In this document: positions 7,539 through 32,800 of the stretch, piece after piece
Layout: each line of letters starts with the position of its first letter
Position numbering within the stretch: position 1 is the stretch's first letter
Assembly: GCA_030390025.1 (NCBI GenBank)
Contig: CM059431.1
Coordinates: 143,904,001 to 143,968,000 of the forward strand
Direction: 5' to 3'
Source: Squalus acanthias
Lineage: Eukaryota
DNA: 64,000 bases
Made by a program: the position numbers and the translations under genes
The notes under the pieces: generated by a model
What the model was told of the DNA's origin: nothing
Database searches by the model: none
What the model saw: only the letters and a program-made list of their open reading frames with translations

Positions 7539-8444
7539 TTAGTTTTTCATTTTTTTAACCAATATCAGAATCAATATCCAAGGAGATTTCACCACCTTCT
7601 TCAGCTCTTCCCTGAATTTAGTTTGTGTAGCTGCATAAATGCAAGTGTTTGTACAGGAACTCAAATACATGAGCATAGATCCGGTTAGAGTGGCGATCAA
7701 TGCAGGAGATGTATAATCGGGTCGGTGATGCACGGCCAGGTTGATAACTATAGAATTCACGGCAGATGTCAGCCACTACAATACAAAACTGCCCGATAGT
7801 GAACAGTAAAATTATGGATTTCCTTCTGTTTTCCTTCTCTGGATCGCTCTGATTCTCACTACTGTGACCCCGGAGTCCCCTGCGGGCTCTACTGGCAACT
7901 AAAATACGTTTGACTGTCAAACAATTAAACAGTAATATCAAAACAAAAGGAAGACATGGGTTTAAAATACTTTGTAAGCGGTTGTAAGCTACACCTGCAG
8001 GCGATGTATAAAAGGCCGCAATGGGGCGGAATCCCCAGGGAACATTGTTGCTTATTTGTTTGCGTTGAAAGGCAAACCAAAATGGGATGTTCTCTAAATA
8101 AACCAGGACAGAGACCGTTGTTATAACCGAGGCCGCAGTTCTCACTGTGCAATACTTCGTTTTAAACTTCTGACAACATATAGCTACAAATCGGTCAAAT
8201 GTGAAGGAGACGGTAAACTACACCGACATATCCAGGTTGGTACAAGACATGTACATCATGAACTTACAAACGGCAGTGTAGGACAGGAATGAATATGGGA
8301 AGTGATGACTCAAAATGTGATATACGATTACATTGATGATCATGACCAGTAGATCTGCTGTTGCCATGGCCACCATGTAGAGAGAGATACATTTGGAAAT
8401 TCCGCATTTTCCTCTGGAGAGTATCACCATTGTCAACAGGTTCG
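7539..8444 (-). pseudogene. GPR139-like class A GPCR, exon 2; disabled
   Basis: ANLLTMVILSRGKCGISKCISLYMVAMATADLLV...FTFDRFVAIC...SSCTNTCIYAATQTKFREEL. TAG at 8218-8220 where W is expected, plus a frameshift near 7795. Acceptor ttcttacAG ends at 8445. Confidence 0.9.
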
Positions 8445-8934
8445 CTGTAAGAAAGAGGGACAAGAGTAAGTAATGGGGACACGTGAATAAATCTTACAGC
8501 GTATTGTGGGGAGATGAGGCGATGCGTTCCTATTGAGGGTTATGCACACGGTTTCTCTGTATAATATAGACGAGCGTTGACGATATATTTTTCAAACGGA
8601 AGTAATAATTAAACACCCAATATCGAGGGACTGAAAGTAATCATTAAACACCCAATATCGAGGAACTGAGAATGTCCATCCTTCCAGCACACTTCAGTCA
8701 GACTGTGTCAAGGTGGTGGGTGGGGTTGGGTGTTGGGAGGGTCGCTCGTATTCAGTATTGGCAATGGTAACGGATAGCGGCCCCAACACCACCGACAGAC
8801 AGACACTGATGGCTCAATGGAGGAGAATTTTGACTTTGGGCGACAGTGTAAAACGGGCGACATCGGCTCAGCCGTCCATGATCCATCTCTTCCGGCTGAA
8901 ACTCCATCGGTATCGCCACTGATACTGTATTCAT

Positions 8935-10439: not shown

Positions 10440-12540
10440 TAGTGATGAGTCTACTCTAATATTACTGGCAATGATTCATCGCTAACATTACTAGTGATGA
10501 CTCCTCTCTAACATTGCTGGCGGTGCCCTACTCTAATATTAATGTTGATGACGCTACGCTGACATTAACGGTGGTGATACTGTTCTACCGTTACTGTTGG
10601 TGATTATACTCTAACAGTACCGCTGGTAACTCAACCCAAGAAACACTGGAGACGGCTCACTCTAACATTATTGCTTGTAATCTTAATCTAATATTACTGG
10701 TGGTGACCCTACTCTAATATTTCAGGTGGTGACTCTATTACCACCTTACTGGTGTTGACCCTACTCTAACATTACTGGTGGTGAGTCTACTCTAACATTA
10801 CTGTTGGTAACTCTACTCTAACATTAATGATGGTGGCTCTACTCTAACATTACTGTTGGTAACTCAACTCTAACATTACTGTTGGTGACTCTACTCTAAC
10901 ATTACTGTTGGTGACCCTGCGCTAACATTGCTGGTGGGGAACCAACTCTAACATTACTGCTGGTGAGCGTACATTAACTTTACTGGCAGTGACTCTAATG
11001 TAATATTACTACTGGTGACTGTACTCTAATTATAGGGGTGATGACTATACTCTAACATAATTGTGGTGACCTTACTCAAACATTACTGGTGGTGACCCTA
11101 CTCTAACATTACTGGCGGTGACTATACTCTAAGATTACTGGTGGTGACCCTACTCTAACATTACTGGCGGTGGCCACACCCTCATATTAATAGTGGTGAC
11201 TCTACTCTAACATAACTGGTGGTGACCCTACTCTAACATTAATGGTGGTGACTCTACTCTAACATTACTGGTGGTGACCCTGCTCTAACATTAATAGTGG
11301 TGACTCTACTCTAACATTACTGGTGGTGACCCTAATCTAACATTACTAATGGTTACCCTACTCTAACATTAATGGTGGTGACTCTACTCTAACCTTAATG
11401 GTGGTGAATCTACCCTAACATTACCGGTAGCGACTCGGCTCGAACATTACTGGTGGTGACTGTACTCTAACATTACTGGTGGTGACCCTACTCTAACATT
11501 AATGGTGGTGACTCTACTCTAACCTTAATGGTGGTGAATCTACTCTAACATTACCGGTAGTGACACGGCTCGAACATTACTGGTGATGACTGTACTCTAA
11601 CATTACTGGTGGTGACTCTACTCTAACATTACTGGTGATGACCCAACTCTAACATTACTGGTTGTGACCCTACTCTAACATTATTGTTGGTGACCGTACT
11701 TTAACATTACTAGTGGTGACCCTACTCTATCATTACTGGAGGTGACTCTACTCTAACATTACTGGTTGTGTTTCTACTCTAACATTACTGGTGAGGACTC
11801 TACTCTAACATTACTGGTGGTGACCCTACTCTTACATTAATGTTGGTGGATCTGCTCTAACATTACTGGTGGTGACCCTAATCTAACATTAATGGTGGTG
11901 ACTCTACTCTGACATTACTGGTGGTGACCCTTCTCTTACATTAATGTTGGTGACACTACTCTAACATTACTGGTGGTGACCCTGCTCTAACTTTACTGGT
12001 AGTGAACCAACTGTAACAGTACTGGTGGTGACCGTACACTAACTTTACTGGTAGTGGCTCTACTGTAGCATTACTGGTTGTGGCTGTACTGTAACATTAC
12101 TGCAGTGACCCTACTCTAACTTTACTGGAGGTGAACCAATTATAACATTACTGTTGGTGACGCTACTCTAACATTACTGGCGGTGACCCTACTCTAACCT
12201 AACTGGAGGTGAACTAACACTAACATTACTGGCGTTGACCGTACATTAACTTTACTGGTAGTGACCCCACTGTAACATTACTGGTGATGACTCTACTCTA
12301 AAATGACTGCTGGTGACTCTACTCTAACATTACTGGCAGTGACCCTACTCTAACATTGCTTCTGGTGACTATATTCTCATGTCATTGGTGATGACCTTAA
12401 TCTAGCATTACTTGTGGTGACCGAACAGTAACATTACCGATGGCGAGTCTACACTATCAGTACTGGTGTTCAGTCAACACTAACATTTTTGGTGGTAACC
12501 CTATTCTATCATTATTCTTGATGACTATACACTAACATTA
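10440..12540. repeat. 26-bp minisatellite
   Basis: Unit ctactctaacattactggtggtgacy repeated over ~2.1 kb; more degenerate at the edges. Confidence 0.95.
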
Positions 12541-12574: not shown

Positions 12575-12762
12575 TACATAAGATCATAAGAATTAGAAAC
12601 AGGAGTCAAAGAGTCATAGAGTCATATTCATAGTCCCTTACGGTACAGATGGATGCCATTCGGCCCATCGAGTCTGTGCCTGTCTCTCTGCAGAGCAATT
12701 CAGTCAGTACGATTCCCCCGCTCTATCCTCGTAGCCCTGCAAGTTTATTTTCCTCAAGTTTA
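12575..12762 (-). mobile_element. CR1 LINE 3' tail/UTR (left half of the LINE split by the provirus)
   Basis: agagtcatagagtcat tail and gccattcggcccatcgag 3' UTR motif; the sequence resumes at 24845. Confidence 0.8.
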
Positions 12763-14712
12763 TGTAAGGAGTATCTTAAGTGGGGTCAGCCTCCAGTTTC
12801 TGACACAGTGAGCGGTTCGAATCACTGCAACACCCCTCCGGTTCCTAGACTTTGGGCTTATTTAGGGGTTGTGAACAAAATTGCAGTAAACAGGTTCTGA
12901 TGAAAGAAATTTACTTTATTAAAAGAAAAAAAAGGTAACAAACTTGAAACACACTTATTACTTAAACACAGATTCGGGAAACACACGGTACAAGCGAGGG
13001 AAATGACAATATATCAAACAAAACCTTATCCCTCCCAAAGATCCCACTATCTGGCTAGGTTTTTGGTTTCAGGATATCAGGGATAATGCTCACCAACGAA
13101 TCCTTGACAGGATATTAGAGTCTTTTGTTTGAAAGGACTCCGTCAGGCCCTTGGTGCTGCGAGGTGTCTGATGGCCACTGCGGCAGTCGCCCTGGTTCCT
13201 TCTTGCTTTGGCCTTCTTCCTCGTGGCTTGGGTAAGTTTTGCTGGAGCAGGGAGAGAGCTCTGTCCGCATCGCCAGTCAGTCCAAAAAGAGAGAGCGAGA
13301 TTATGGCACAGGCTTTCAAATTATACCATTTCTTTTTCGCGCTCAAAAACCCCTTACTAAAACGAATTCCTTTTTGAATGTAAATGACTTTTGCTTCGTC
13401 CAATTGTCTAGTTTTAGGCGGGCTTGCCAGTTCCGATGGTTTTTGCTTAGTGTTAATCGCTTTCCGATTTAAACACCGCCTTATCTACGCGCCAAATCTC
13501 CACCTATTGTTCTTCTGTTGGCGGGCTTTTAAATCTGTTCTCTGGTAACCTGGTTGATTGTTTTTTTTGATTGGATAATGGCTATGAAACTGTGTGATCG
13601 AAGTTATAATGGCCCAGAAATTAAACAGTGAGTGTTCCCGCGGGGGTAAGGATTCCCCACGATATCGCACTCCGCAGCCTACCTTTTTGCTCCGGGCCCA
13701 CACGGACTTTAGTTTGAAAGGCTCCCTCTCTTGGAACCGTGCAGTGCTTGCGTGATCCAGAGACGCAATTAGTTCGTGCGAGCTCTGGGATCACGTGATT
13801 CAGTTAGAGCCAATGGCAGCACACCATCTTTCAGTCATAGATTTGACAGGAAGACCTGTCAAAGCTATGAATACTACACGCCCCCAAAAGAACAGCTAAA
13901 CCTCAATTACATTTTTTAAAAAAGCCATCACATTAATAAAATAAGTATAGTTAAATAAATTAACCACTTTAAACAAAAAATTTAATTTTTGAAAAAATTT
14001 AAAATTCTTTTTAAAAGTTATAAAAATAAACTTACCTTTCTTTAAAGTCTCTAAAAAAGATAAAACTGTTGAAAAAAATTTAAAATAACACTTAATTAAA
14101 TACTTACCTTGTTAAAAGGGGGTCCTACGCCTGCTTTCTTTATGTGTAAAATCTTCACCACTTACCTGCGCGTTCAAAGCTGAAAAAATAACTAAGTGCA
14201 CAGCCTGTAGCGCGCATGCGGTTCACTTAGGAACCACCCTCTTTTGAATTCACGAAGTGCCGGTTTCCCGCGCATGCGCAGTGCATGCAGGAAACCGGCA
14301 ATTGGAGACCTAATACGCGAGAGTACACATTGCGTATTCTCGCGTATTAGGTCTAATTTTCGGGCCATTGTCATTGAATCGTTTTTAGATTTCCAGCATC
14401 TTGTTTGCCCCTGGGGATCCATTATTGAATGTGTTTGTGAGTTTTGCTATTGTTTCAAACAATTCCCAGACAGCTTGATCTGTTCACTGACCGGCCACGC
14501 CCATCGCAACTTGAGTCTGTGAAAAAAATGTCTCTCCCAACAATAAGATTAAAAAAAAATCAGTTTCCTCAGGTTTTCTTCTTGTGATCTTTCTGTTTTT
14601 ACATCAAATCTCTTCACCTGAGGTCCCATCATCCCAAGTTTGTATGAAAAGTCCAAAAATCACTCCCTTTAGGGCTCTGTTCGAGTTTCTGGGGGATTTT
14701 GCGAAGCCTACA
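12763..14712 (-). mobile_element. 3' LTR of provirus copy 2 (with 756-bp insertion)
   Basis: Near-identical to 23647-24844 apart from the insertion at 13611-14366; preceded on the minus strand by PPT aaagtgggaa (14713-14722). Confidence 0.95.
13611..14366. mobile_element. Non-autonomous TIR element (MITE, probably Harbinger-type) inside the 3' LTR
   Basis: Termini ggcccagaaatta...taattttcgggcc; flanked by AAT/ATT; absent from the 5' LTR (empty site gttatattgtca, ~24495-24506). Confidence 0.85.
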
Positions 14713-14994
14713 TTCCCACTTTGATACTAACACTGAATTAGTATCATTAACAGGTGAGCAAAATTTCCGATCCCCGAAAACCAACTTTCCCCTGCATTAC
14801 CTAAACTAAAAACCCAACCATTCATTCCTCTTTTGAAAGTGGTGTTTCAGGTACATACATGTAAGAATCAATCTTTATTTCACACCAAGCACGGAGAGGG
14901 TCCGACACCCCTGCACAGCTTGGAAAAAACACATCATACACATCATAAAAATGACACAACACACATACAATTTTTTTTTATTAAAAGACAAAAT

Positions 14995-17346
14995 TCAAGG
15001 TTCGTTCCATCCCTGGCCATAGCCTTTATTTTGATGCACTTCCCAAGTCCCTTCGTGTCTGGAGCGGAGCTCCCCGTCCCTTCCCCTGCACTTTGTACAC
15101 AGCAGGTAGAGAACTATCCCGAGCTGGCAGACCACCAAAAGATGGGAAGCCATCCTGATCCAGGACGGCACCTCTATATTCTCGAAAATATCCCACCAGG
15201 GTGGAACTACTATATCCAAAATCTCTGCCCCTATTTCAACTGTTTTCTGTTCCAGGGTGTAGAAATGGTTTCGTGAAATCTCTACAGCTTTAAGTAGGAT
15301 GGTAAGATGTTCGGGTAGAGGGGGAATTTTATATCCAAAGTAAGTCACATACTTTTGCAGGTTGGTGATGTTTTCTGTTACAGTGAGGTGAACAGTGGAG
15401 TGTTCAGGAATGGGGACAATCCGTTCCTGGGCCACTTGAACTTCTGCCTTGGGTTTAAAGCAGAAACTGCTGTCACTTACCAGACACCAGAAGTGTCCAT
15501 GCTGGTAGTGGGACGCACCTGTGGTGACACAATATGTCCCACCCCCTATATATGCTACCTATGGGGAAACATGGCCGTCTGCCATCACCTCCATGGTACA
15601 ATTGAAAGGTCGTGCGCCAGCAGCTTTAAACCCGCACTGTGGTTTGGAATAGGCGTTCAAGTGCTGGGGACACAGTATTATGTGTGAACCGCGGCTCCGG
15701 CACCGGAGAGGTCAGTACCTGTCATGGCGTGCTCCCACTTGATGACAAAAGGTGGGACCGCTGTAAAACGGATGTGTGCACCCCCTTGAATGACTTCAAT
15801 GTTCTCCACCCTGTATACCGGTACGGGTCGGGCTGTCCCACTCATAACCGGCTTTCTCACTACTATCCCCATGATAGTGTGATTTGAACGCCCACAATCT
15901 ATTGGGACAGGGTAGGCTTCAGAGGCTAGACGAAATTGGCATGGGCTCAGCGAAGTACTAATCGGGTGGAGGGCTGCAAGGTGCTTGTTGCTGATCCAGG
16001 AGGGGACTAAACCTTGCTTTAAATCCTCCAGGTTGCTACGGCCCTCGCCCAGCAAGCATGCCCCGTACAGCACACACACCTCATTCTGTGCAGCCTGATC
16101 CGATGCATTCCTATCCTCCTGTATGGGTGCATTTACTGTTTTGGCATGCCTTTCCAATTCTGCAATACTTTCCTTTAAATGAACCGTCATAGCTTGGTCC
16201 TCATGTAGCTCTGAGCCTACCACTGTGTTCCATCCTTCAGCTTCTTTCTTAACTGGGTTTTTAAACCATTTATCTGTGTCTGTAATTCCATGTCATCCAG
16301 GCTCTTTATTACAGAGGACCCTGCACTATAGGCAGTGAAGACATCATTCCAGGCTCCCCTTCTTTGTCTACCCGTGCCCATAGGGTTCTCAGGGTGTATT
16401 CTGTATAGCTCTACTTTGTCTATATTGGCAAAATCAAATTCGTAAAATTCCCTAAACATTTCCTTTAGCAGGGCCTGGTACAGCTGCTCCGTTTCCTTAG
16501 GACACCACTCAGGTAAGTATACCTCGGTAAGGTTTAATATTACTGAAGCTACTGCATAGTGTACCCCCTGGTATAGTAGCTTTTCGGTTGGTACTCGGAC
16601 TAACCCATTCCCTGGACCATTGGTGCTGGTAGGGCACTTTTCTTCCAGGGTTTTCGCTACCTGGGTCGTGGGTAGGGGCTTTCGAGTGTGTGCCACGAGT
16701 TCAGAGGCATTAACTGGGACCGGAATGTGTGGGACCACGCACCCATGCAGGCTAGAATCCCACCCTATCCCCTCCCCGGCATCTTGCCATTGGCTGGAGA
16801 AGATGATGGATACCCCTGTGGGGCAGGCTTCCTCTGATCCCCACATACAAACATAGACTCCCTGTTCCGACTCCCACCACTTATTCCAGCAAACACTAAC
16901 TCCTCCTTGGGTCCCTGTGATTGTCCGGTTGGTGTCGTTCCCTAATCTTTCCCAGTCGGCTGTATGGTCCCCTGCGTCCCTGCTCAGCTTCCTGAGCCAA
17001 CACCACCTATTCAAGGGAATTCGTCCCTTACAGGTAAGGCACACACGCTTCCCCTCGGTGACACTGACCCTTGTGGCAACGACCTGTATTCTGGGGCATG
17101 GGAGGGAGGCCTTCCCGTACGTGAACCCGGGCTGGTTGTAGTATTTAGTAGAGTTGGACCCCAGCCACCCTGGCCACCTTCCCTCGTGGAAGTAGATGGC
17201 GAGCTCCTTCACTCCCCGCTCGCCACCCCTGCGTTGACGACTGGTGCTCTCACTCCTGAGCACCCATAGATGTGGGAGTCCTCCACGTCACCTCGGTCAC
17301 CGATGCTCACCCCTACCAGGGCGAGCAGGAGCAGAAACCTTGTCAT
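14995..17346 (-). pseudogene. env: env glycoprotein (signal peptide, Ig-like module, furin site, heptad repeat, Cys-rich region, TM); frameshifted
   Basis: ATG at 17346 gives MTRFLLLLALVGVSIG. ORF pieces 16217-17263, 15678-16223 and 14995-15435. RQRR|GAWNDVFTAYSAGSSV at 16358-16369; DLSGC..ILCPQ..CGF..NCTMEV..YCVTT..FCF; PPWWDIF followed by a hydrophobic TM. Confidence 0.85.
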
Positions 17347-17359
17347 CCCGAAGTCGTTT

Positions 17360-17382
17360 CTGTAGGGGCACACACAAAACAT
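17360..17382 (-). promoter_or_regulatory. Putative env splice acceptor
   Basis: Minus strand gttttgtgtgtgcccctacAG lies 13 nt upstream of the signal-peptide ATG. Confidence 0.6.
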
Positions 17383-17919
17383 ATATCCACTTCCCAGAAA
17401 GGTTCTCTGGCTGGATAATTAATCAAGCCCTTCAACTTAAAAAAAAAACTCTACAAACAACTAAACTAATGATAACCATAACCACCAAAACTGCAATTAC
17501 TTAAAACCGGAAATTCTGTACATTTGCCCCCCGTCTCCGGACGGCCAGGTTAAATCCTGTTTAGTCTCTGCCTTATGTGGCCTCTGGATGGCTTGTACAC
17601 CTGGGTGTAGTGCGGCCTGTACCGCCGGACCCAGAAGGCCTTCCTCAAAACCGCTGGGGGTATCTTAACATCCCAGCTGCGTCCTGTACTGCAGCACACT
17701 ACCCCCTTTTGTGTGGCTGCAGCACCCTCGTTCATATCTGTGGGCTCCTCCCAGCCTGAGGCTGCAGGCGGGGGACACTTCTCTCTCTCTTCTTCCAGTA
17801 CTACCTCTCCTATGAAAACCTCACTGCTGGAGACTATAGGCTGGGAATCCCCAACTTTAGAACGCTCCCTGCTCTTGGGCGCTCTTTTTCGGGTTGTAAC
17901 CCTCTTTGGGTGGGACCCT

Positions 17920-20900
17920 CTAAACAGATACACCTGTGGCCACAGTAGCCTTTGCTGTGGTGTGCGGGGAGACCTTCTTAGGGCTCTGGCCACTGGGGGT
18001 GTGCTTGAGTCCCACATAATCGGTGGAGTGACCTCTCCTGTGAGACAACACACTGCCCTCTCGCTGCAGCTTGTACGTCTGCCACAGCTGCGGCTGGCTG
18101 CGGATTTCTATCTTGGGGCCATTCAGCTTTGGCGGTTGTTCCCTTTTAGGTTTAAATAGTTTGCATTGGTTGATGTGAAACCACTTTGTACGGCGGGGCA
18201 TCTTTATGGCATAGACCATGGGGCTTGCCTTGTCTACAATGTTGTAGGGCCCCATGTACAATGGTTCGAAACTCCCTACCCGGGCAAAATTTCTCACCAT
18301 GACCTGATCTCCAACCTCCCACTCGTGGTGCTTGCGGGTTTCCAGCAGCAATGGCTTACCCCGATGCTGTTTTCCCATGTTACTCGCAGCCTGCCAGTGG
18401 ACCTGTTTAAGGTGGTCCAACAGATTGCTGACGAATCTGTCCCGGTTCAACTCCCTGAGCTGCCCTTCCGTGAGCACCGGGGCTAGCACATGGGTGGGGT
18501 CCGCATAATCCTGCCAGTCATGAGCTGGTGTGGGGAATACCCCGTGCTTTTTCACTGGCTGGCCCGGATCCCCATTAGAACCAACGGTAAGGCTTCTATC
18601 CACTTTTTGGGTGAGTTTCCCATCTCCTTTCGCAGCCTTTCCTTGATGGTACGGTTTAAACGCTCCACAATCCCTGATGACTGTGGGTTGTGGGCGACGT
18701 GCCATTTCCCTTCTATGCCGAGTACCCTGAGGGTCTCTTGCATGACCTGCCCAGTAAAGTGACTCCCCTGGTCTGACTCCACATACTGTGGAAGCCCCCA
18801 CCGTGAGAACACTACCCTGACCAGAATCCTGGCTGTACCCAAAGCGGTAGCTGTTCGACATGGAAAAGCTTCCACCCACTTTGAGAACACATCCACCAGG
18901 ACTAGGCAGTATTTGTAGCCTCGCTGAGCGGTGGGTAGGGGCCCGATGTAGTCGACCTGGATCGACTGCCATGGTCCCTCTACCCTCCTGATGTGTCCCA
19001 TATATACCTTCCTTTTCTGGGGGTCAGGGTTGTTGGCAGCACACACCAGACAGCCTGCACAGAACTCGCGGACATCCTCCCTCAGTCCTGGCCACCATCC
19101 TGCCTGTTCCACCCGCTGCCAGGTGGTCTCAGGCCCGGGATGCCCCGCTCCTGGTCCCGCATGGGCCAGTTGGAGGAATTCCCTTCGGTGCTGCTGCGGC
19201 ACTACCTATTGTTCCCCCCTGAATAGCGTGCCTTCTTTGTGGGTGATGGCTGCTGCGCCGTATGGGCCCTCTACCTTCTCTCCTCTAGCCAGCGTTTCCA
19301 GGACAGTTTTTAGGATGGGATCCTGTGCCTGGACCGTCTTTAGGTCCGGGGTCAATGCTACCCCTGCACTCCGTTGGGTCCCTCCTCTACCTCTGATTGC
19401 TGCACCGGGTTTGATCCATATGGATCCCACAACGTGCCTGTACTGGCGCCCTCTTTGGCCAGAATGTCGGCTTGGTGATTGCCCTCTGCGCGGGGCTCTA
19501 ACTTGGAATGTGCCTTCACCTTTTGGATGTAGACCCTACCTTCCTCCCTGACTGCCCTCATGATTTTCTCCAACAGAGGCTTGATGGCCAGGCGTCTCCC
19601 ATCAGCGGAGGTGTATCCACGACGGGACCAGATGGCCAGGTACTCTGTACACGAATTGCATGTGAACACGCTGTCGGAGCAAATAATGTATGGGGTAGGG
19701 AATTCCTCGGGGTGTGTGACTACATACACCACCGCAGACAGTTCAGCCTGCTGGGCACTCATGGTGCTGGGGAGCTTGATTGCCAGAGCAATGCCTGTCT
19801 CTGGGTCATAAATCCCACACCCTGTGAGTCGTTTTCCAGCTGATGCTGTGCTTGAACCGTCCACATATATTTCGCGGCCTGTGGGGTGTATCCCACCTCG
19901 CAAACCTATGTTGACTTCCCATACACCTTCAACCGAACACCGGTGGGCTGTCCCTGAGTAAATCATGTTAGCTGCGAGCTTTGGCTCGCAGAGACCTTTT
20001 ACCCTCAGATCCATTTGTGAGAGAAGCAGGGTCCAGCGAGCAATGCGGGCATTGCTCACTGTCCCATCATTAATTCTCCCATCCAAGAGCATCTGGGTGG
20101 GCGTGTGGTGAGTGAGGAGTGTGATGGGAGAGGTGCCTGTGAAGACCAATGATCTTTTCACAGCCCAGTGAGTGGCTAGGAGGTGCCTCTCACAGTTGGA
20201 GTAGCTCCTCTCCACATCAGTGAGTATTCTGGAGGAGTAAACAGCTGGTCTCAGCTTGCCATGCCTCTCTTGGAGCAGTACTGCACTCAGACTGTCCCCA
20301 CTGGCTGCTACCTCCAGAAAAAAACTCTTTCCCTCCATCAATGGCCCCTAGAGCCGGAGCGGTCTGCAGATCTCTCTTGAGTTTCACAAAGGCAGCCTCG
20401 CAACCCTCATCCAAAACCCACTCCCCTCCCTTGTGTAGGAGTCGGAGCAGAGGGGCTGCTGTGGCTGCGTAATCCTCAATGAAATCTCTGCAGTACCCAG
20501 TTAGCCCTAGAAAAGACCTTACTCCTGTAACTTTGTTGGGGGCTGGTAACTCCTGAACTGCTTCCCTTCTAGCTTTGTCAATGGTCCTCTCCCCTGCTCG
20601 CACAGCCAGGCCCAGGAATTTAACATCCCGCTGGCCAATCTGTGCCTTCTTGGGGTTTACTTTAAAGCCTTCTTGCTTGAGCAGTTCCAGCAGTTCTGCC
20701 AGAAGGGGACCATGTTCCTCTCCCTCATCGGTAAAGAGGAGTAGGTCGTCCACATACTGGACCAGCTGATGGGGCCTGCTGAAGCCCATCAAGCAATTCG
20801 CCATACATTGGTGAAAAATGCTTGGGCTGTTGTGGAAATCCTGGGGCAGACAGTTCCATGTGTACTGTGGGCCTTTAAATGTAAAGGCGAACTTGTACTG

Positions 20901-21820
20901 ATCCTCTCTCCTTAGAGGGATGGACCAGAACCAGTTGGAAATATCCAGCACTGTAAAGATATTCGCAGATGCTGGGATACTTCCAATGAGGTCGGCTACG
21001 GCTGCAACCGTGGGGGCACAGGCGGGGATGTTTCGGTTGAGTACTCGATAGTCCACTGTGGCCGTCCAGGAGTTGTCTGGTTTTCTAACCGGCCACAGTG
21101 GGGAGTTCACGTGGGTGACTATAGGTCTCAATACCCCCTGCTTGAGTAAAGAAGTCAAAGCCGTTTCCAAGTCTGTCTCAGCTTCCCTGGGGAAGTTATA
21201 CTGCTTTTGTGGGCGGTTCATGGGGTCCCCACTTACACTAACCTCGACCCCGGTTACCCTCCCACAGTCGTGCTTGTGAGTGGCAAATGCTGCGAGGTTT
21301 TCCTGCACAAATTCCTGGTACTCCATTGGAGTGTTACTGACCATGAGTTCGAGGTCGTAACCCTCCTTTGGTTTTACTTTGCACAAGGTCCCCTTGCCTT
21401 GTGCCTCCGGGATGACTGCTACATCAGTACCTTTTGGGTACATGCTCCCCATAGACAGTGGTTCCTTAAATCCACTAAAATCCTGTGGCCTGTGATAAAA
21501 TCGGCCCCCAGGATCCCCTGCCCTTCTTGCTCCCACTTCATTAGGACACAGGTCCACTTGGTGTGGAGCGTTCCCAAATGAATGGAAAGCGGGATGGAGA
21601 ATGAGCCAGCCTGCTCGTTACCTGTGAATCCCACTAGGCTGTACGGGACCCCGTTAGACAGAGGTGAAGTGGCTGCGTTATCTGAATAAATGAGGGTGCT
21701 CGAAGCTCCTGTGTCTAACAGATAGGTCCCTTCTACCTTTTCTACCTCCATCTTAACATGCGGTCTCTTCCAGGCATCATACTCGACGGGACACAGGTAG
21801 ACCGGCTGTGCTAGCTCCAG
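17920..21820 (-). pseudogene. pol: pol: protease, RT, degenerate RNase H (tether), RNase H, integrase; frameshifted
   Basis: PR LLDTGAS...GILGADF; RT WPVRK, VLDISN, LPQDFHNSP, YVDDLL; tether LEVAAS/CERHLLA/THH; RH YVDGSS/AELSAV/CSDS/NHQAD; IN H-H-C-C, VDYIGP, SDQG, GIVER, GPY. Confidence 0.92.
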
Positions 21821-23644
21821 TCATGCCTCTGGGTTGGGTGGGGCAGATGGGATCAGAGAGCCAGTGGCTGTAGCCACCTTCCCTGGGCCATCAAACAGGT
21901 CTATGCTGGCCGCTACTATTGTGTCCAGTGTGGGGGAACAGGTCGGTGCCTCAACTTTTGGGGCAGGAGTTGGTGACGTCTTTGCTAGGCTATCCTTCCA
22001 GGGATTCCTACTGTCCTTTCTCCAGTGCCCAGTCTTCCCGCACCCGAAGCAGCTACGCTTCGTGTCGGAAGGTTTACCACCTTCCTGGTGCCACTCCTTC
22101 TTATCCTGGCTGGGCTTTATCTCATGCACCTTCCCTTTCGGTGGGGTGTCTTCTGCTCCCCTACCGTTCCGGTAGGGTAGTGTCAGTTGCCTGACCACTG
22201 CCTCCTCGGTGACCCGGGGATCTCTTGTGTCAAACCAAAGCTCAGACTTGGCTTTTACTCGTGGCAAGCTGTTTGCCACTAGGCTACGGACCAAGTGGGC
22301 CAGCTCGTCCCTGTTCAGGTTAGCCCGGTCGAGAGCCCCATTACAAGCACCCCTGTACACCGGCCACAGCCTGTCTGCGAAAGCCTGTGGCATCTCCCCT
22401 GCGAGCTGCACTGTTTTCTCCACCCGGGAGAAAGGACTTCCCTCATTCATTCCCATGGCCTCTAATACTTCCTCCCTTACGGCAGCATACCCGGTCTGTC
22501 CTCTCTTGCTCTCAGCAGAGAGTGTCTGGTAGAAATTGCCATCTCATGAGAACAGGAGCAATTTTGCCATTTCGGCATCGTCACAATCGTTTATGGCTGC
22601 TGATTGTTCCACCTCCATGAAGTGGACTGAGGGGTCTTCCTTTTGGGTAAGTTTACTCAGGTGGCTTACCATAGCTCTAAGCTGTTGTGTACCGTGGGGA
22701 GCCAAGAACTGACTTTCAAGGGGTCCCTGACCTCCACCACCGGCGGGCGGGCCGAATTTTTGCTGTCGTGCTGGGCACATTCGTCCTGGCTCCGACTTCT
22801 CCTGCATCGGTTCGCCCCCCTCTCCCTGCTGCCAGACCGAGTCAAAACTCGGCGCCACAGGTGCTGGTGTGCACTCCCTGTCAGCCTCACAGATTGTCTG
22901 CACCTCCTGCTGCCTAACCAAGCTTCTCCTTGGCGCCACAGGTGGTGTTCTAACAGTCTCCCCCTGCTCTTCCAGGTCTGCCTGGGCCGCACCCGGACTT
23001 ATCCGGCACAGCATGCCTTTCGTCTTGGACAGAGCAAGGTTCAGACTCTCAATCTGCTTCTGACAGGGGCCGTGGTCCCCTACCTCAAACGCCGTTGTAC
23101 TGGCTACTCTATAGGCTGCCTGAACATCGTTTAACTTCTCTCTGAGTTCCCGTAATTGCTTTGCAAGGCGGGTGTTCTCTTCCCGCAATGCCAGTTCACT
23201 ACTTTTGGCCTCGGTGGCCTGACACTCGAGGTATCACTTACTGGCACGGTGTTCCTCCAGCATCTGTGACTGTTCCTGATCTTTTGTGCCGAGCTCTGCT
23301 AACAACCTATCCCCTGCTATAGCACTGGCACGGGACAGTTGGCTTTCTTCCGTTAGCTCTTCTGTGAGAGCATGAATGAGCTTCCCCATAAGCTGCATTT
23401 GTTTCTGGGAGCAGACCAACCATATGGCTTTCTCCACAGACTTATTGTATTCCTTGCTCTCAGTCCATGCAGCTGCAGCGTCCATAGGACGTTCAGCATG
23501 CAACAGCCTGAGGACCCATTTCTTGGTGTTATTTACTTTTTTATATACATAGGATGACATCCTCTCTTCCATTTTTGTTCTCTCCTCAAAACCAGCATTT
23601 ACTGCTTCACAACCCTTTCGCCAAAGTCCTGCCGCGGTCGCCAT
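21821..23644 (-). pseudogene. gag: gag: N-terminal coiled coil, capsid-like region, zinc knuckle; two internal TGA stops
   Basis: ORFs 23234-23644, 22544-23188 and 21821-22456 share one frame; heptad-rich REENTRLAKQLRELREKL; knuckle CFGCGKTGHWRKDS with the last Cys replaced by Ser. Confidence 0.88.
23626..23643 (-). promoter_or_regulatory. Primer-binding site complementary to tRNA-Arg(TCG)
   Basis: Plus strand gtcctgccgcggtcgcca equals the 3' 18 nt (with CCA) of vertebrate tRNA-Arg-TCG as I recall it; 3 nt from the 5' LTR. Confidence 0.85.
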
Positions 23645-23646
23645 TC

Positions 23647-24844
23647 TGTAAGGAGTATCTTAAGTGGGGTCAGCCTTCGCTTTCTGACACAGTGAGGGGT
23701 TCGAATCACTTCAACACCCCTCCGGTTCCTAGACTTTGGGCTTATTTAGGAGTTGTGAACAAAATTGCAGTAAACAGGTTCTGATGAAAGAAATTTACTT
23801 TATTAAAAGAAAAAAAAGGTAACAAACTTGAAACACACTTATTACTTAAACACAGATTCGGGAAACACACGGTACAAGCGAGAGAAATGACAATATATCA
23901 AACAAAACCTTATCCCTCCCAAAGATCCCACTATCTGGCTAGGTTTTTGGTTTCAGGATATCAGGGATAATGCTCACCAACGAATCCTTGACAGGATATT
24001 AGAGTCTTTTGTTTAAAAGGACTCCGTCAGGCCCTTGGTGCTGCGAGGTGTCTGATGGCCACTGCGGCAGTCGCTCTGGTTTCTTCTTGCGCGCTGGTCT
24101 TCTGGCCTTCTTCCTTGTGGCTTGGGTAAGTTTTGCTGGAGCAGGGACAGAGCTGTGTCCGCGTCGCCAGTCAGTCCGAAAAGAGAGAGAGATTATGGCA
24201 CAGGCTTTCAAATTATACCGTTTCTTTTTCGCGCTCAAAAACCCCTTACTAAAACGAATTCCTTTTTGAATGTAAATGACCCTTGCTTCGTCCAATTGTC
24301 TAGTTTTAGGCGGGCTTGCCAGTTCCGATGGTTTTTGCTTAGTGTTAATCGCTTTCCGATTTAAACACCGCCTTATCTACGCGCCAAATCTCCACCTATT
24401 GTTCTTCTGTTGGCGGGCTTTTAAATCTGTTCTCTGGTAACCTGGTTGATTGGTTTTTTTGATTGGATAATGGCTATGAAACTGTGTGATCGAAGTTATA
24501 TTGTCATTGAATCGTTTTTAGATTTCCAGCATCTTGTTTGCCACTGGGGATCCATATTTGAATGTGTTTGTGAGTTTTGCTATTGTCTCAAACAATTCCC
24601 AGACAGCTTGATCTGTTCACTGACCGGCCACGCCCCTCGCAGCTTGTGTCTGTGAAAAAAATGTCTCTCCCAACAATAAGATTAAAAAAAAATCAGTTTC
24701 CTCAGGATTTCTACTTGTGATCTTTAGGTTTTTACATCAAATCACTTCACTGAGGTCCCATCAACCCAAGGTTGTATGAAAAGTCCAAAAATCACTCCCT
24801 TTAGGGCTCTGTTCGAGTTTCTGGAGGATTTTGAGAAGCCTACA
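23647..24844 (-). mobile_element. 5' LTR of provirus copy 2 (1198 bp)
   Basis: TGTA...TACA termini; direct repeat of 12763-14712. Confidence 0.95.
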
Positions 24845-26405
24845 GTGTCTATCCGGTCTCCCCTTGAAAACATTGAGTGTGTCCGCTTCCACCACTTCCG
24901 TCGGCAGCGAGTTCCAGGTCATCACCACTCGCAGCGTATAAAGTTTTTCCTCACGTCCCCCCTGCATATCTTGCCCAAAACCTTAAATCTGTGTCCCCTA
25001 GTCTTTGTACCACCAATTAGTGGGAACAGCCTTTCTCCATCTAGCCTGTCCAAACACTTCGTAATCTTGTACACTTCTATCAAATCACCCCTCAACCTTC
25101 TTTGCTCTAATGAAAACAAGCACAGGTTCTCCAACCTTTCCTTGTAGCTAAGATCCCCCATCCCAGGAACCATTCTTGTAAATCTCCTCTGCACCCTCTC
25201 AAGGGCCTTTACATCCTTCCTAAAATGTGGTGATCAGAACTGGACGCAATACTCCAGTTGTGGCCTAACCAGCGCTTTATAAAGGTTCAGCATAACTTCT
25301 CTACTTGTGTACTCAATACCTCTATTTATGAAGCATAAGATTCCATATGCTTTGCTCACCACTCTCGCAATAAGTTCTTCCACCTTCAGGGATCTATGCA
25401 CATTAACTCCCAGGTCCCTCTGTCCCTGCACACTCTTCAAAACTGTGCCATTAAGTGTATATTGCTTCTCCTTATTCCTTCTGCCAAAATGCATCACCTA
25501 CACTTCTCTGAATCAAATTCTATCTTCCACTTGTCTGCCCATACTGCCAGCCTTTCTATGTCCTTTTGCAGTCGATTGGTATCATCCTCAATGTTAGCCA
25601 CACCACCAAGTTTGGTGTCATCGGCAAATTTAGAAACTCAACTCTGTATTCCAATATCCAAGTCATTTTTTTATATCAAAAAGCAGTGGCTCCGGCACCG
25701 ACACTTGGAGAACACCACTGTCTAACATACTGCAGTCTGAAAAACAGGCAGTCACCAAAACTCGCTGTTTTATGTCCTTAAGCCAATTCATTATCCAAGC
25801 TGCCACTGACACACCTATTCCATGAACCTCAATTTTGTTAACCAGCCTTCGAAGTGGTACTTTGTCAAACGCCTTCCGAAAATACATGTAGAAAACATCT
25901 ATTGCATTCCCTTCATCAATCCTCCCTGTTACTTCATCACAACTTTTAGATAGATTTATCAAACACGATCTGCCTTTTACAAATCCGTGTGGTTCTCCTT
26001 AATGAGCTTAAACCTCTCTAAGTGCTCGATAATTTTTTCCTTGATTATTGTTTGTAAAACTTTCCCCACCACCGATGATAAACTGGCTGGCTTTAGTAAC
26101 AAGGATTATCCTTACACCCTTTCTTGAACAATGGTATCACATTTGCCAAATTTCAATCCTCAGGCATCTCCCAGGCATCTAGGGAAGATTGCAAAAATAT
26201 GGCAAGCCCGCCTGCTATCTCCTCCCCCAATTCCCTTAGCAACCTGCGATGCAAGTCATCAGAACTAGGCGACTTGTCCACTCTAAGCATAACCAGCCTT
26301 TCTAGTGCATCCTGACTATCAATTTTCAAACCCTTCATTCATTCTACCTTTTCCACTTCTACCGATATATTATCAGCATCCACCTCCTTAGTAAACACCG
26401 ACACA
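24845..26405 (-). mobile_element. CR1 LINE, 5'-truncated ORF2 (RT) remnant
   Basis: DKSP..D.LH.R.L.EL, YMYFRKAFDKVP, LVRPQLEYCVQF, TRGHRFK; many stops. Confidence 0.9.
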
Positions 26406-26496
26406 AAGTCATAGAGTCATAACGGCACAAAATAAGGCTATTCGGCCCATGGAGTACGTGCCGGCTCACTGTAGAGCAATGCAGTCAGTCCCATTC

Positions 26497-29400
26497 ATAG
26501 AGTCATAGATTTATACAGCACAGAAAGAGGTCCTTCCGCCCATCGTGTCCGCGACGGCCATCAAGCTCTATCTATTCTAATCCCATTTTCCAGCACTTGG
26601 TCCGTAGTCTTGTATGCTATGACGTTTGAAGTGTTCATCTAAATGCTTCTTGAATGTTGTGAGGCTTCCTGCCTCTATCACCCTTTCAGGCAGTGAGTTC
26701 CAGATTTCAACCACCGTCTGGGTGAAAAAGTGTTTCCTTAAATCCCCTCAAAACCTCCTGCCCATGACCTTGAAACTATGCCCCCTGGTTATTGACCCCT
26801 CCATTAAGGGGAAAAGTTCATTTCTATCTAACCTATTTATGCGACTCATAATTTTGTACACCTCCATCAGGTCCCCTCTCAGCCTTCTCTGCTCTAAGGA
26901 AAACAACCCCAGCCTGTTCAGTCTCTCTTCATAGCTGAAGCGCTCCAGCCCAGGTAACATCCTGGTGAATCTCCTCTGCACCCTCTCCAAAGCAATCACA
27001 TCCTTCCTATAGGGTGGCGACCAGAACTGCACACAGTATTCCAGCTTTGGCCTAAGTAACGTTTTGTACAGCTACATCAAAAGCTCTCTGCTCTTATATT
27101 ATATGCCTCGGCTAATGAAGGCAAGTATCCCATATGCCCTTTTAACCACCTTATCTACCTGTCCTGCTGCCTTCAGGGATCTATGTACATGCACACCAAG
27201 GTCCCTCTGATCCTCTGTCCTTCCTAGGGTCCTACCATTCATTGTGTATTCCCTTGCCATGTTAGTCCTCCCAAAATGCATCACCTCACACTTTTCAGGC
27301 TTAAATTCCATTTGCCACTGTTCTGCCCATCTGACTATATCGTCCTGTAGCCCGAGGCTTCCCTCCTCGCTACTTACCACTCCACCAATTCTTGTGTCAT
27401 CTGCGAACTTACTGATCATACCTCCTACATTCATATCTACACTACAAACAGCAAAGGACCAAGCACCGATCCCTGCGGTACACCACTGGACACAGGCTTC
27501 CAGTCACAAAAACAACCTTCGACCATCATCCTCTGCCTCCTGCCACTAAGCCAATTGTGGATCCAATGTGCCAAATAGCCGTGGATCCCATGGGCTCTTA
27601 CCTTCTTGACCAGTCTCCCATGCGGGACTTTGTCAAAAGCCTTACTGAAGTCCATGTATACTGCATCAACTGCACTACCCTCATCCACACACCTAGTCAC
27701 CCCCTCGAAAAATTCAATGAAACTAGTGAGACATGATCTCCCCCTGACAAAGCCATGCTGACTATCCTTGATTAATCCTTGCCTCTCCAATTGGAGACTA
27801 TTTCTGTCCCTCAGAATTTTTCCAATTATTTCCCTACCACTGATGATAGGCTCACTCGCCTGTAATTCCCTGGATTATCCCTAGTACCCTTCTTGAATAA
27901 TGGTACTACGTTAGCTGTCCCCCAGTCCTCTGGCACCTCCCCTGTGGCCAGAGAGGTTCTTAAAATTTGTGTCAGAGCCCCTGCAATCTCCTCCCTTGCC
28001 TCACACAGCAGCCTGGGATACATCTCGTCTGTGCCTGGGGACTTGTCCCATTTGAAGCCCACTAAAACCGCTTGTAGCTCCTCCCTCTCAATGCTAATTT
28101 GTTCAAGTATATCACAATCCCCCTGCCTGATTTATATGCCTACATCATCCTTCTCCATAGTGAACACAGACGCAAAATATTCAATTAAAACCTCACCCAC
28201 ATCTTCCCGCTCTACACACAGATTGCCACTTTGGTCCCTAATGGGCCCTACTCTTCCCCTGTATATCCTCTTACCCGTAATATACTTATAAAGCACCTTG
28301 GGATTTTCCTTTATTTTGCATGCCAGTGTGTTTTCATGCCCCCTCTTCGCTCTCCTAATTCCTTTTTTAAGTACCCCCATGCACTTTCTATTCTCCTCTA
28401 GGGCTTCCACTGTTTTGAGTCATTTGTATCTGCCAGAAGCCTACCTTCTTTTCCTAACCCATTCTTTTATATCCCTTGACATCCAGGGTTCGCTGGGCTT
28501 GTTGGTCCCACCCTTGACATTTACGGGAACATGTTGGCATTGTACTCTCTCTATTTCCTTTCTGAAAGACTCCCTCTGCTCTGATTTGGATTTTCCTACA
28601 AGTAGCTGATCCCAATCCACTTTGGCCAGATCCTGCCTTAACATATTAAAATAGGCCTTCCCCCAATTTAGAACCTTTATTTCCGGTCCATCTTTGTCCT
28701 TTTCCATGACTACCTTAAATCTCACCGAATTATGGTCACTGTCGCCAACATGCTCTCCTATTGACAGTCCTACCACTTGCCTGGCTACATTCCCTAGAAT
28801 TAGGTCGAGTACCGCCCCCTCTCTTGTACGACTTTCTACATGCTGGCTCAAAAAGCTCTCCTGGATGCACTTTATGAATTCTGCACCCTCTAAGCCTTTC
28901 AGTCTCTGTCTATCCCATTTAGTATTGGGGAAAATGAAATCCCCTATTTTATAACCCTATTATTTCTACAGTTCTCTGAGATGTGCCTACATATCTGTTC
29001 CTCTATCTCCCCCTGACGGCTTGGGGGCCTATATTACACTCCCAGCCAAGTGCTTGCCCCCTTTTTGTTTTTAAGTTCTACACATATGGCCTCATTAGAG
29101 GAAGCTGCTGAGATATCATCCCTCCTTATAGCTGTAATTGTCTCCTTGATTAATATTGCGACACCCCCTCCTCTTTTACACCCCCATCTGTCTCGCCTGA
29201 AGATACTATACCCCGAAATATTGAGCTGCCAATCCTGCCCCTCCCTCAACCATGTCTCTGTGATAGCAACAATATCATACTCCCATGTGTTTATCAACAG
29301 CTTCAATTCATCTGGCTTACTCGCAAGAATCCTTGCATTAAAATAAGTGCCATCCAGCCTTGCAATATTCCCTTGTGCCGTTTCATACTTGCACTGCCTT

Positions 29401-29874: not shown

Positions 29875-32800
29875 TGACATGAATCGTGTCATTCATGTGT
29901 AAATGACTTATGAAATAATGCTGGGCGGCCTGCTGGTGGTGCTGTCCAGGGAGAGTATAAATACTCGGGCATGGGGCCAGCTTGCTCAGGACATTCTTTA
30001 ACAGGAACTAGTGAAGGACACAACTAGATCTCCATGTTGAAAAACAGTTGATTAGAGCCTTGTTTAATACTCAGACCAAGTGCCGAGTAGTTTTCTTACG
30101 TCAATTTAATCAACTGAACCTGCTCCACGCTCTGAGTGATTTAGGGAACACACAGCTAGGACTCAAACTGTAGAAGGGAACCAGATGTAGTAATCAATCC
30201 ATCATGTAGACACTACTCAGACCCGCCCGTCTTGACCTGGACCCGAATTCACCTACAGCTGCTAAGGTATGGAAACACTGGTATCGTACCTTCAGCAACT
30301 TCCTCAAGGAGTGTGGTGAGAATGTTCCTAATGAGTTACGAATGCTTGCCAATTATGTATCCCCTCATTTGTTTGACTATATCGAAGACTGTGTAGACTA
30401 TGATTCTGCTATCCAAACACTACAGCAACTATATGCTAAGGCCCCAAACGAAATTTTTGCTCGTCACCTACTGGCCACAACTCGACAACAACCCACGGTA
30501 TCACTTGACGAATTCCTTCAAGAGCTTCGCAGGCTCAGCAAAGGTTGTAACCTCAAAGCTGTCTCAGCTGAGCAGTACCGGGAGGAATTAATTCGTGACG
30601 CTTTTGTTAATGGAATTGCTTCTCCCCTCAGACACCAGCGTCTGTTGGAGAATAAAACCCTCGGGTTACAAGCTGCCTATAACCAGGCATATTCTCCGGA
30701 CATAGCTCAAGAAAACTCAGATGCCTATTTTTTAACACGTGCACGGGCTGCTGCGACCACTTTTAGTGACTCCTCAGGTAAGCCTCAGGCGGAAGCACTC
30801 ACTGATGACGACCCTACCCTAGTGGCATCTTGGCAATCTAAAACAAAGTGTTTCTTCTGTGGAGGTGCATTCCACTATAGGAAATTTTGTCCTGCTCATA
30901 ATGCAACCTGCAATCATTGCAGTAAGAAAGGTCACCTTTCTAAGGTCTGCCGGTCAGGAGCCTCGATTAGTGTTGCAGCTGCTTTCTATAAAACTGCTCC
31001 TCCTCCCATCACAGCTGTTTTTCCCCAAAGCCTGTCCCATGCAGCCACGAGGGTTTCGGTGAATGTACACATTTTGAGTGCATTAATCGACTCATGTAGC
31101 TCTGAAAGCTTCATTAGTGAGCGGCGGTCAGTAAGTTAAAACTGCGTATTTACCTCTCGGACAGGGAAATTGCAATGGCTCTGATGACACTGACCAACAA
31201 CTCTTCCGGCTTTTGTCTTGTCAACCATATTCTCAATGATCGCACATATTTCTCCACCCGGCTCGGGATGCTCAAAGACCTATGCAGTGATGTGCTCCTG
31301 GGACAGGATTTCCAGAAACAACACACAAGACTCACTTTCGAGTTTGGAGGGTCAAAGCCAGAGCTCACTATTTCCAAAGTACTGTTTTGTGTGCTTTCGG
31401 CAGCTTCGCTCGATGAGCCCTCCTTGTTTGCTAATCTTTACCCCTGATGTAAGCCCATAGTCACTAAATCACGACGTTTCAGCCAAGATGAACTATCCTT
31501 TATCGAGGCAGAGATCGTTCGCCTTCTAGCTGACGGTATCATTGAGCCATGTTCATCTCCCTGGCGGGCTCAAGTCGTCGTTGTTAAAAATCCTCTGAAG
31601 CAACACATGAAAAGTCTTTGCATCGATTACTCGCAAACTATTAACCAGTATACCGAGCTGGATGCCTACCCACTACCACGCATCGATGACATGGTCAATC
31701 ACCTTGCCAACTACAGGGTATTTTCAACTTTTGACTTGAAGAGCGCATACCATCAAGTACCGTTAAATGATCTGACAAAAAGTATACGGCTTTTGAGGCT
31801 TTACCAGTTTTGTCGCCTTCCATTTGGGGTCACCAATGGGGTGGCTGTCTTCCAACGGGCAATGGATAGCCTAGTCAAACAGGAGAACTTATACGGACAC
31901 TTTTCCATATCTGGATAATATTACCATTGCTGGTCATGACCAGAAGGAGCACGATGCCAACCTCCAGAAATGTCTTGACGTTCTCTAATCGTCACAACTT
32001 AACCTTAACCTTAACCGCCTGTTATGCGAAGTGGATACTACACTTTTCCGACAAGATCCAGCCCCTGCTTCACGCAAAGTAATTTCCGTTGGAGGCAATG
32101 GCTATTTCAGCTTTTGACCTCCTCAAGCAACAACTGGAAAAAGCCACGCTTCATTCCATCAATGAAAACCTTCCTTTCGTGGTCGAGTGCAATGCATCGG
32201 AGGTGGCGATCTCGGCTAGCTTGAATCAAGGCGGTCGACCCGTTGCATTTCTGTCCAGAACCTTGCAGGGTAGCGAGATCCATTATCGTCCTGTCGAGAA
32301 TGAGGCTATGGCTATCATCGAAGCATTATGTAAATGGAGTCATTTTCTCACTCGTCGCCATTTCATGCTCAGTGCTCTGTGGCCGTTATGCTCGATAAAC
32401 GGAAACGCACAAAGGTCAAGAATAACAAAATACAGCTCTGGAGGATGGAATTGGCCGCCTTTGGCTACACCATAAATTATCGACCCGGCAAAGAGAATGT
32501 GGCCCTGGATACACTGACTCGTGCATTCTGCTCTTCCATGTCAACTTCGACTCTTGCAGATCATCATACTGACTTGTGCCATCCTGGCGTTATCCGTATG
32601 TTGCACTTTGTGTGATCTAAAAATCTCCCATTTTCTACAGAAGACGTGAAAAGAACATGCTCCACTTGTAGAATTTGCTCCGAATTAAAACTGCAATTCT
32701 TCCAAACGTCGGCTGGCTCACTCATACACGCTACACAGCCTATGCAGTGACTCAGCATTTACTTTAAAGGGCCATTGCCTTCCTCAACGCGAAACACCTA

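Follow-up and report, generated by a model that had tools for sequence, protein, structure and literature searches.

The window analysed here, a 64,000-nt stretch of the Squalus acanthias genome, contains a minus-strand provirus with an LTR at each end (12763-24844) that carries an env gene. The order LTR-gag-pro-pol-env-LTR, together with a primer-binding-site-like (PBS-like) sequence, is that of the canonical Retroviridae. The features of the provirus are as follows:

23647-24844, minus strand: 5' LTR, TG...CA, 1198 nt
23626-23643, minus strand: PBS-like 18-mer that begins TGG, 3 nt past the 5' LTR
21821-23659, minus strand: gag, with an N-terminal coiled-coil tendency and one zinc knuckle (Pfam; zinc knuckle E 0.009)
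18150-21820, minus strand: pro-pol, in several frames, with protease, RT (YVDD), tether, RNase H and integrase (Pfam, tblastn)
14995-17346, minus strand: env of about 780 codons, very probably encoding an F-type (class Ib) fusogen
17296-17346, minus strand: hydrophobic, signal-peptide-like leader (translation)
16847-17095, minus strand: possible Ig-like module in an N-terminal extension of about 220 residues (sub-threshold Pfam, Atlas clusters)
16370-16630, minus strand: F2-equivalent core, a CP..GP..G strand and then a helix (conserved in the family alignment)
16358-16369, minus strand: furin site RQRR (basic site in the same alignment column of homologues)
16020-16357, minus strand: fusion-peptide-like stretch and long heptad helix, HR-A (helices 33-75 and 82-146 of the P0001 model, mapped by tblastn)
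15417-15920, minus strand: Cys-rich beta region, equivalent to F domains III/I/II (strands 179-346 of the P0001 model; beta-only profile)
15216-15315, minus strand: second helix, HR-B (helix 380-413 of the P0001 model, mapped by tblastn)
15097-15198, minus strand: membrane-proximal WWDIF and transmembrane anchor
12763-14712, minus strand: 3' LTR, split by an insertion of about 755 nt

The PBS-like 18-mer presumably matches tRNA-Arg. The earliest ATG in frame with gag (23642-23644) overlaps its start, and in the SnRV reference gag likewise opens no more than about 10 nt from a PBS-like site. There are two in-frame stops inside gag, which shares its frame with pro across a TGA. The insertion in the 3' LTR (13612-14366) is found in that LTR only and has short terminal inverted repeats; it looks like a non-autonomous DNA transposon, presumably of Harbinger type. 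The K2P divergence of the LTRs is 0.031. With the shark rate that PMC4422223 assumes, this corresponds to about 70 My, and with the mammalian rate to about 7 My. The date is loose because there is no clean target-site duplication, the sequences at 12757-12762 and 24845-24850 being unmatched. Either recombination between two insertions or decay of the flanks may account for this.

The env gene is spread as pieces over three frames: the reading frame is broken near 17.2, 16.2 and 15.7 kb, and a stop codon lies in frame at 15559-15561. An unbroken natural ORF, P0085, is collinear with three of these pieces, which are thus parts of one gene. Contigs of at least 90% identity fill all 30 env and pol bins in each of four sequencing runs, which come from four studies and carry four different organism labels. 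The element thus belongs to a family, and this particular copy, which is unable to make Env protein, has most likely acquired its breaks through decay. Part of a second copy, comprising the 3' end of env and an LTR, lies on the plus strand at 1-1956, facing the first; it is also broken and has diverged further, with identities to the first of 90% and 79-84%.

The remainder of the window includes a rhodopsin-family GPCR-like ORF in two pieces (7618-8493, minus strand; 7tm_1 E 2e-5), tandem arrays at 10440-12500, 1900-2500 and from 52600 onward (units of 26, 67 and 39 nt), and inverted copies of LINE-like RT fragments, presumably of CR1 type, at 24900-28300 and 34000-35900. Remnants of the RT and integrase of an unrelated LTR element are found on the plus strand at 31450-33330, 22-30% identical to the pol homologues.

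The initial annotation, made from the sequence alone, had proposed that the body of this env has the F1 layout of paramyxo- and pneumovirus F. Its span of 14995-16620 has the right stop, but the gene begins further upstream, at a signal-peptide-like ATG at 17346. The RQRR was indeed found about 450 codons before the stop: from 16369-16358 to 14995-14997 there are 1360 nt, or about 453 codons. The annotation had called this far longer than a retroviral TM subunit; the length after the furin site is 196-226 aa in four of five gamma-type Envs, but 415-417 aa in three foamy Envs and 446 aa in one lokiretrovirus (Loki) Env. The fusion-peptide-like stretch that was said to follow is present but moderate, with 36% small and 48% hydrophobic residues compared to 60% and 64% in the Loki Env. 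A long heptad helix, a beta region and a second helix succeed each other in the model of the homologue P0001, in the order described. The cysteine motifs LCPQ (15675), CGF (15636), NCT (15603), YCV (15534) and FCF (15465) occur in sequence, but DLSGC occurs in no single frame; DLSG alone is in frame (15713), beside a frame break, and the full motif was the annotation's own repair. WWDIF (15198) and then a TM helix (15153-15097, Kyte-Doolittle 2.07) complete the arrangement as described. CX6CC and LQNR are absent from every env piece, and the gene lacks the set of features typical of gamma-type orthoretroviral Env (a TM subunit of about 200 aa, an ISD and CX6CC).

The fold of the env family is F-type as judged from a predicted model, and structure searches and profile homology both support the class Ib assignment. 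The AlphaFold2 model is that of the natural homologue P0001, built from a 22-row alignment, and not of the window copy. It consists of a long helix, a beta region and a helix (pLDDT 65, pTM 0.33). Foldseek with this model gave 32 matches at E<=0.001 (best E 5.6e-7), and all 21 of those listed are either foamy Env or the F proteins of hMPV, RSV, PIV5, measles virus, CDV and hPIV3. The F proteins of hMPV and RSV hold the top ranks, and foamy Env follows with an E of 6e-6. TM-scores between the model and F are only 0.15-0.29, at 9-15% identity. A wide search by VIA was filled by coiled coils with Z up to 6.8, foamy Env being tied among them at 6.8. The BFVD matches are mixed, with F proteins and chuvirus-type glycoproteins; SnRV Env was not among the best 50 of them listed. 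By ESM Atlas features, the top clusters for P0001 are PF00523 and PF12259 at 0.92, and the ten best named matches all belong to one clan.

The best structural neighbour in the ESM Atlas is an unnamed chordate cluster of 874 aa (TM 0.55). By length alone, it resembles ORF3 of bird Ovex1, an untyped env of 873-874 aa beside a pol of SnRV/spuma grade (PMC2717909).

Sequence profiles give a more specific picture. In Pfam, neither the window pieces nor P0001 nor 25 homologues match PF00523 or PF12259, and the family stays below the gathering cut-off of PF00523; the profile search suggested with the initial annotation therefore gave no direct Fusion_gly or Baculo_F match for the env pieces. PDB sequence searches with the env pieces, P0001 and two profiles gave no F and no Ig match. 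A run of the family profiles over 34 reference loci, with 374 ORFs in all, placed the two Loki Envs first (E 2e-17 to 1e-15), followed by the WDSV-type Env and foamy Envs (best 3e-5), with gamma-type Envs at E>=0.8. A beta-only profile, from which the helices had been removed, scored 42-43 bits with Loki, 15-19 with foamy, 11.8 with WDSV-type, 3.5 with SnRV and at most 2.1 with gamma-type Envs, against a maximum of 4.2 bits among 600 shuffles. In the Loki and foamy matches the cysteines correspond. The similarity to Loki Env exists at the profile level, blastp giving no match between it and the window env. Both Loki Envs in turn match PF00523 (E 1.2e-5 and 2.2e-3), below its cut-off. On sequence grounds, then, a chain leads from the window env through Loki Env to F, and by sequence the window env is closest to Loki Env, not to an F of the Mononegavirales.

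The WDSV-type epsilonretrovirus Env (L034:5962-9648) matches the family profiles at E 5e-7 to 3e-4, and the BFVD matches include the Env of WEHV-1 (E 8.5e-3); the Envs of the epsilon group may thus be F-type as well. The Env of SnRV (L012:6131-9535) is F-like in layout: its last furin site is followed by about 510 aa, and CX6CC is absent. Its N-terminal stretch is Ig-like by eye, and its support from the env family is marginal.

The window env differs from the Loki Envs in its N-terminal part. From the start Met to the conserved GPxxG strand there are about 243 codons, compared to 24 in two Loki Envs. Pfam Ig_3 is matched below its cut-off in the window env (E 0.1) and in the homologue P0081 (E 0.0027), and the ESM Atlas gives Ig clusters at 0.88 for the extension. 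Modelling of the N-terminal piece from the window gave a pLDDT of 36, and a profile of the extension had no match in the PDB. By analogy with the scheme of an F scaffold with an added binding module (PMC11468914), the extension is likeliest to be an attachment module.

A search of 1.84 billion representatives matched 29 env homologues. The closest protein is the sawshark ORF P0001, with 63-69% identity over the F1 part. Among 19 homologues whose hosts were looked up, eight species of cartilaginous fish, sharks and skates, account for 15, and frogs for two. Long unbroken ORFs of the family exist in distant hosts, such as P0060 (Chiloscyllium punctatum), P0070 (Pelodytes ibericus) and P0074. Gene models from the whale shark and another record (P0065, P0084) join the same pol and env pieces, showing that this pairing is not peculiar to the window locus.

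The provirus RT shares 42.7% identity with that of SnRV, 35% with that of Loki and 50-54% with proteins of amphibians and the coelacanth that are annotated "NYNRIN-like". SnRV is represented here by the reference locus L012, chosen by RT text, and Loki by L030 and L031, chosen by RT signatures. In a tree of 36 rows, the window RT falls inside the canonical (Ortho+Spuma) clade with support of 100/97, leaving Loki outside. It also lies outside the foamy clade (100/100), which, together with the zinc knuckle in gag and the short signal-peptide-like leader, sets the element apart from the Spumaretrovirinae. Grouping the RT with Loki is rejected (p-AU 0.0066), whereas the test does not reject a union of its lineage and SnRV (p 0.20), the base of the tree being a polytomy. 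At one RT motif site, all 24 published Loki RTs have PFG (supplement of PMC7947760), where the window RT has PQ, as do seven of the nine nearest relatives checked; PFG[YL] occurs in none of the nine. Viral contigs scanned with a single RT sequence gave no match. Loki is represented in the trees by two close anchors that are similar to each other, and alpha/beta/delta/lenti, ERV-L and Odin sequences are absent from them; the integrase tree also omits P0015 for short coverage.

The integrase is 45% identical to Loki and 37% to SnRV; its grouping with SnRV is rejected (p 0.014) and that with Loki is not (p 0.44), in a tree without resolution at its base. The tether is likewise nearer to Loki (40%, versus 27% for SnRV), and the RNase H is about even (62 bits for SnRV, 58 and 52 for Loki). 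The dual RNase H arrangement (tether and RH) is present, a feature common to all retroviruses and therefore not discriminating. By its RT sequence, the carrier is not a lokiretrovirus but belongs to a basal lineage of SnRV/spuma grade that also includes the "NYNRIN-like" elements of amphibians and the coelacanth. In its tether, integrase and env, by contrast, the element tends towards Loki.

The interpretation that we prefer, and consider probable, is that this decayed env of an endogenous retrovirus encodes a class Ib fusogen homologous to F and to foamy Env and closest to Loki Env, in a carrier other than a lokiretrovirus. An intact copy would, by analogy with F and foamy Env, be directed into the secretory pathway by its signal peptide and form a trimer. 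Furin would cut the precursor at RQRR, and the N-terminal subunit would remain interlaced with the beta domains. The trigger that then frees the fusion peptide would be either low pH or the binding of a receptor, in which the putative Ig-like arm at the N-terminus may take part. HR-A would extend into a long coiled coil, onto which HR-B would zip back to give a six-helix bundle and merge the membranes.

How a canonical-type RT came to be joined with such an Env can be explained in two ways that we hold to be about equally likely. An F-type Env could be ancestral to retroviruses and lokiretroviruses together, with the gamma- and beta-type Envs as later replacements, a view that we put forward tentatively. 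The shark and amphibian lineage, the foamy viruses and probably WDSV and SnRV would then, equally tentatively, have kept the F-type Env, each adding its own attachment module. It is just as conceivable that a canonical retrovirus of SnRV grade and a lokiretrovirus once swapped modules, giving an element with a canonical RT and with integrase and env from Loki, in which case the fold would be uninformative about the ancestral retroviral Env. The discordance between the RT and integrase signals is in keeping with such recombination, and env swaps are reported to be common in anamniote ERVs, including an SnRV-related pol joined to a gamma-type env (10.1101/2021.11.23.469661); Wang and Han (PMC7947760) also inferred repeated replacement of RH and IN. 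Any such exchange must be old, however, given that both the RT lineage and the env family have members in amphibians as well as in cartilaginous fishes. The window env, moreover, resembles Loki Env only remotely. A single swap from Loki also does not explain why the foamy and WDSV-type Envs match the profile.

Other origins have less to recommend them. A plain cartilaginous-fish lokiretrovirus with an ordinary Loki Env might be argued from the facts that Loki Env is the best sequence relative of env, that tether and integrase are closest to Loki among the named references, and that the gag-pol-env order and dual RNase H are alike. We regard it as very unlikely: Loki is defined by its RT, the window RT lacks the Loki signatures and its monophyly with Loki is rejected, and the RNase H is slightly nearer to SnRV. 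Furthermore, Loki was reported from none of the six chondrichthyan genomes originally screened (PMC7947760, 2021), two of which belong to species that carry the window env family. The converse, a plain SnRV-like element with an SnRV-type env, is weakened by the env profile ranks and by the rejected integrase grouping. Capture of env directly from a paramyxo- or pneumo-like virus, as the initial annotation implied, would fit the top Foldseek ranks of hMPV and RSV F and the top Atlas cluster, PF00523, which consists mostly of negative-strand RNA viruses. Against this, there is no sequence similarity to any F, and Loki and foamy Env are closest; moreover, many structures of F but few of foamy Env are available in the PDB, and by VIA foamy Env ties or leads. 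Direct capture is thus highly improbable. That the layout is convergent, or that this is a divergent gamma- or beta-type orthoretroviral Env, might be argued from the low TM-scores and the dominance of coiled coils in the wide structural search, but we give this hardly any credence: the beta-only profile still matches Loki and foamy Env far above the shuffles, with matching cysteines, and neither CX6CC nor an ISD nor a gamma-type score above 2.1 bits was found.

In itself, F-likeness in a retroviral Env is already known in kind. Loki Env was described as resembling PF00523 (PMC7947760), and foamy Env as having an F core of class Ib (PMC11468914, 2024), for which Calcraft 2024 is also cited (in PMC12583693). 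The contrast drawn in the initial annotation, F rather than retroviral, is therefore a false one, and its proposal that the idea would be refuted by a best match to foamy Env does not hold, since foamy Env, which is among the matches, has an F-like build of its own. F-type Envs are also reported to be widespread among invertebrate gypsy elements (10.1101/2023.10.26.564294). SnRV-like ERVs are described from elephant shark, coelacanth and amphibians (PMC4422223; PMC4977317), and epsilon Env has been called neither gamma nor beta (10.1101/2021.11.23.469661). On the origin of Env, Wang and Han set out four scenarios and preferred separate gains by Loki and canonical retroviruses, as the Envs shared no similarity; independent acquisition is the scenario preferred in PMC9040795. 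In the literature covered, which leaves out most subscription papers and Repbase, so that an earlier description is possible, no non-foamy retrovirus with a canonical RT and a Loki-related F-type env was found. What appears to be new is the combination of a canonical RT, an integrase and env leaning to Loki and an N-terminal arm.

The presence of a canonical-type RT together with an Env clearly homologous to that of Loki, in a family whose profile links the Loki, foamy and WDSV-type Envs by sequence, provides a usable bridge for testing a single class Ib origin across retroviruses and negative-strand RNA viruses. An ancestral F-type Env, if true, would overturn the independent acquisition scenario as put forward in PMC9040795. 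Screens for env built on gamma/beta TM motifs miss this family in at least eight shark and skate species.

Among known systems, Loki Env (PMC7947760) shares with the window env a signal peptide, the GPxxG strand, an RxxR about 450 aa before the end, a long HR-A, a Cys-rich beta region and a TM anchor, with a profile E of about 1e-16, and the lokiretroviral tether and integrase resemble those of the window provirus. The differences are an RT that falls outside Loki, about 220 extra N-terminal residues in Env and the cartilaginous-fish hosts. Foamy Env (PMC11468914; PDB 8RM1) is comparable as an F scaffold within a canonical retrovirus, but has its RBD inserted between the subunits and a leader peptide, whereas the extra module of the window env is N-terminal; foamy virus gag also has no zinc knuckle, where the window gag has one.

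The F proteins of the Paramyxoviridae and Pneumoviridae have the same order of F2 and F1, furin site, HR-A, beta domains, HR-B and TM. The N-terminal subunit of the window env is much longer (about 325 aa), and it is encoded by a provirus without a separate attachment gene. SnRV and the SnRV-like ERVs, which include lineage I of the elephant-shark CmiERV (PMC4422223), provide the best named RT match, in SnRV itself. SnRV is also like the window provirus in that gag opens right at the primer-binding site in frame with pol, and its Env is similar in the long part after the last furin site and the lack of CX6CC. Compared with the env family, however, SnRV Env gives an hhalign E of 2e-4 (probability 45%) and a beta-profile score within the range of the shuffles, and its integrase does not group with that of the window. 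The F-type Envs of errantiviruses and baculoviruses (PF12259) are neighbours of the env family by Atlas features (0.92) and structure (TM 0.58); those of errantiviruses are found with a Ty3/gypsy pol in invertebrates (10.1101/2023.10.26.564294), and the window env has no Pfam match to PF12259.
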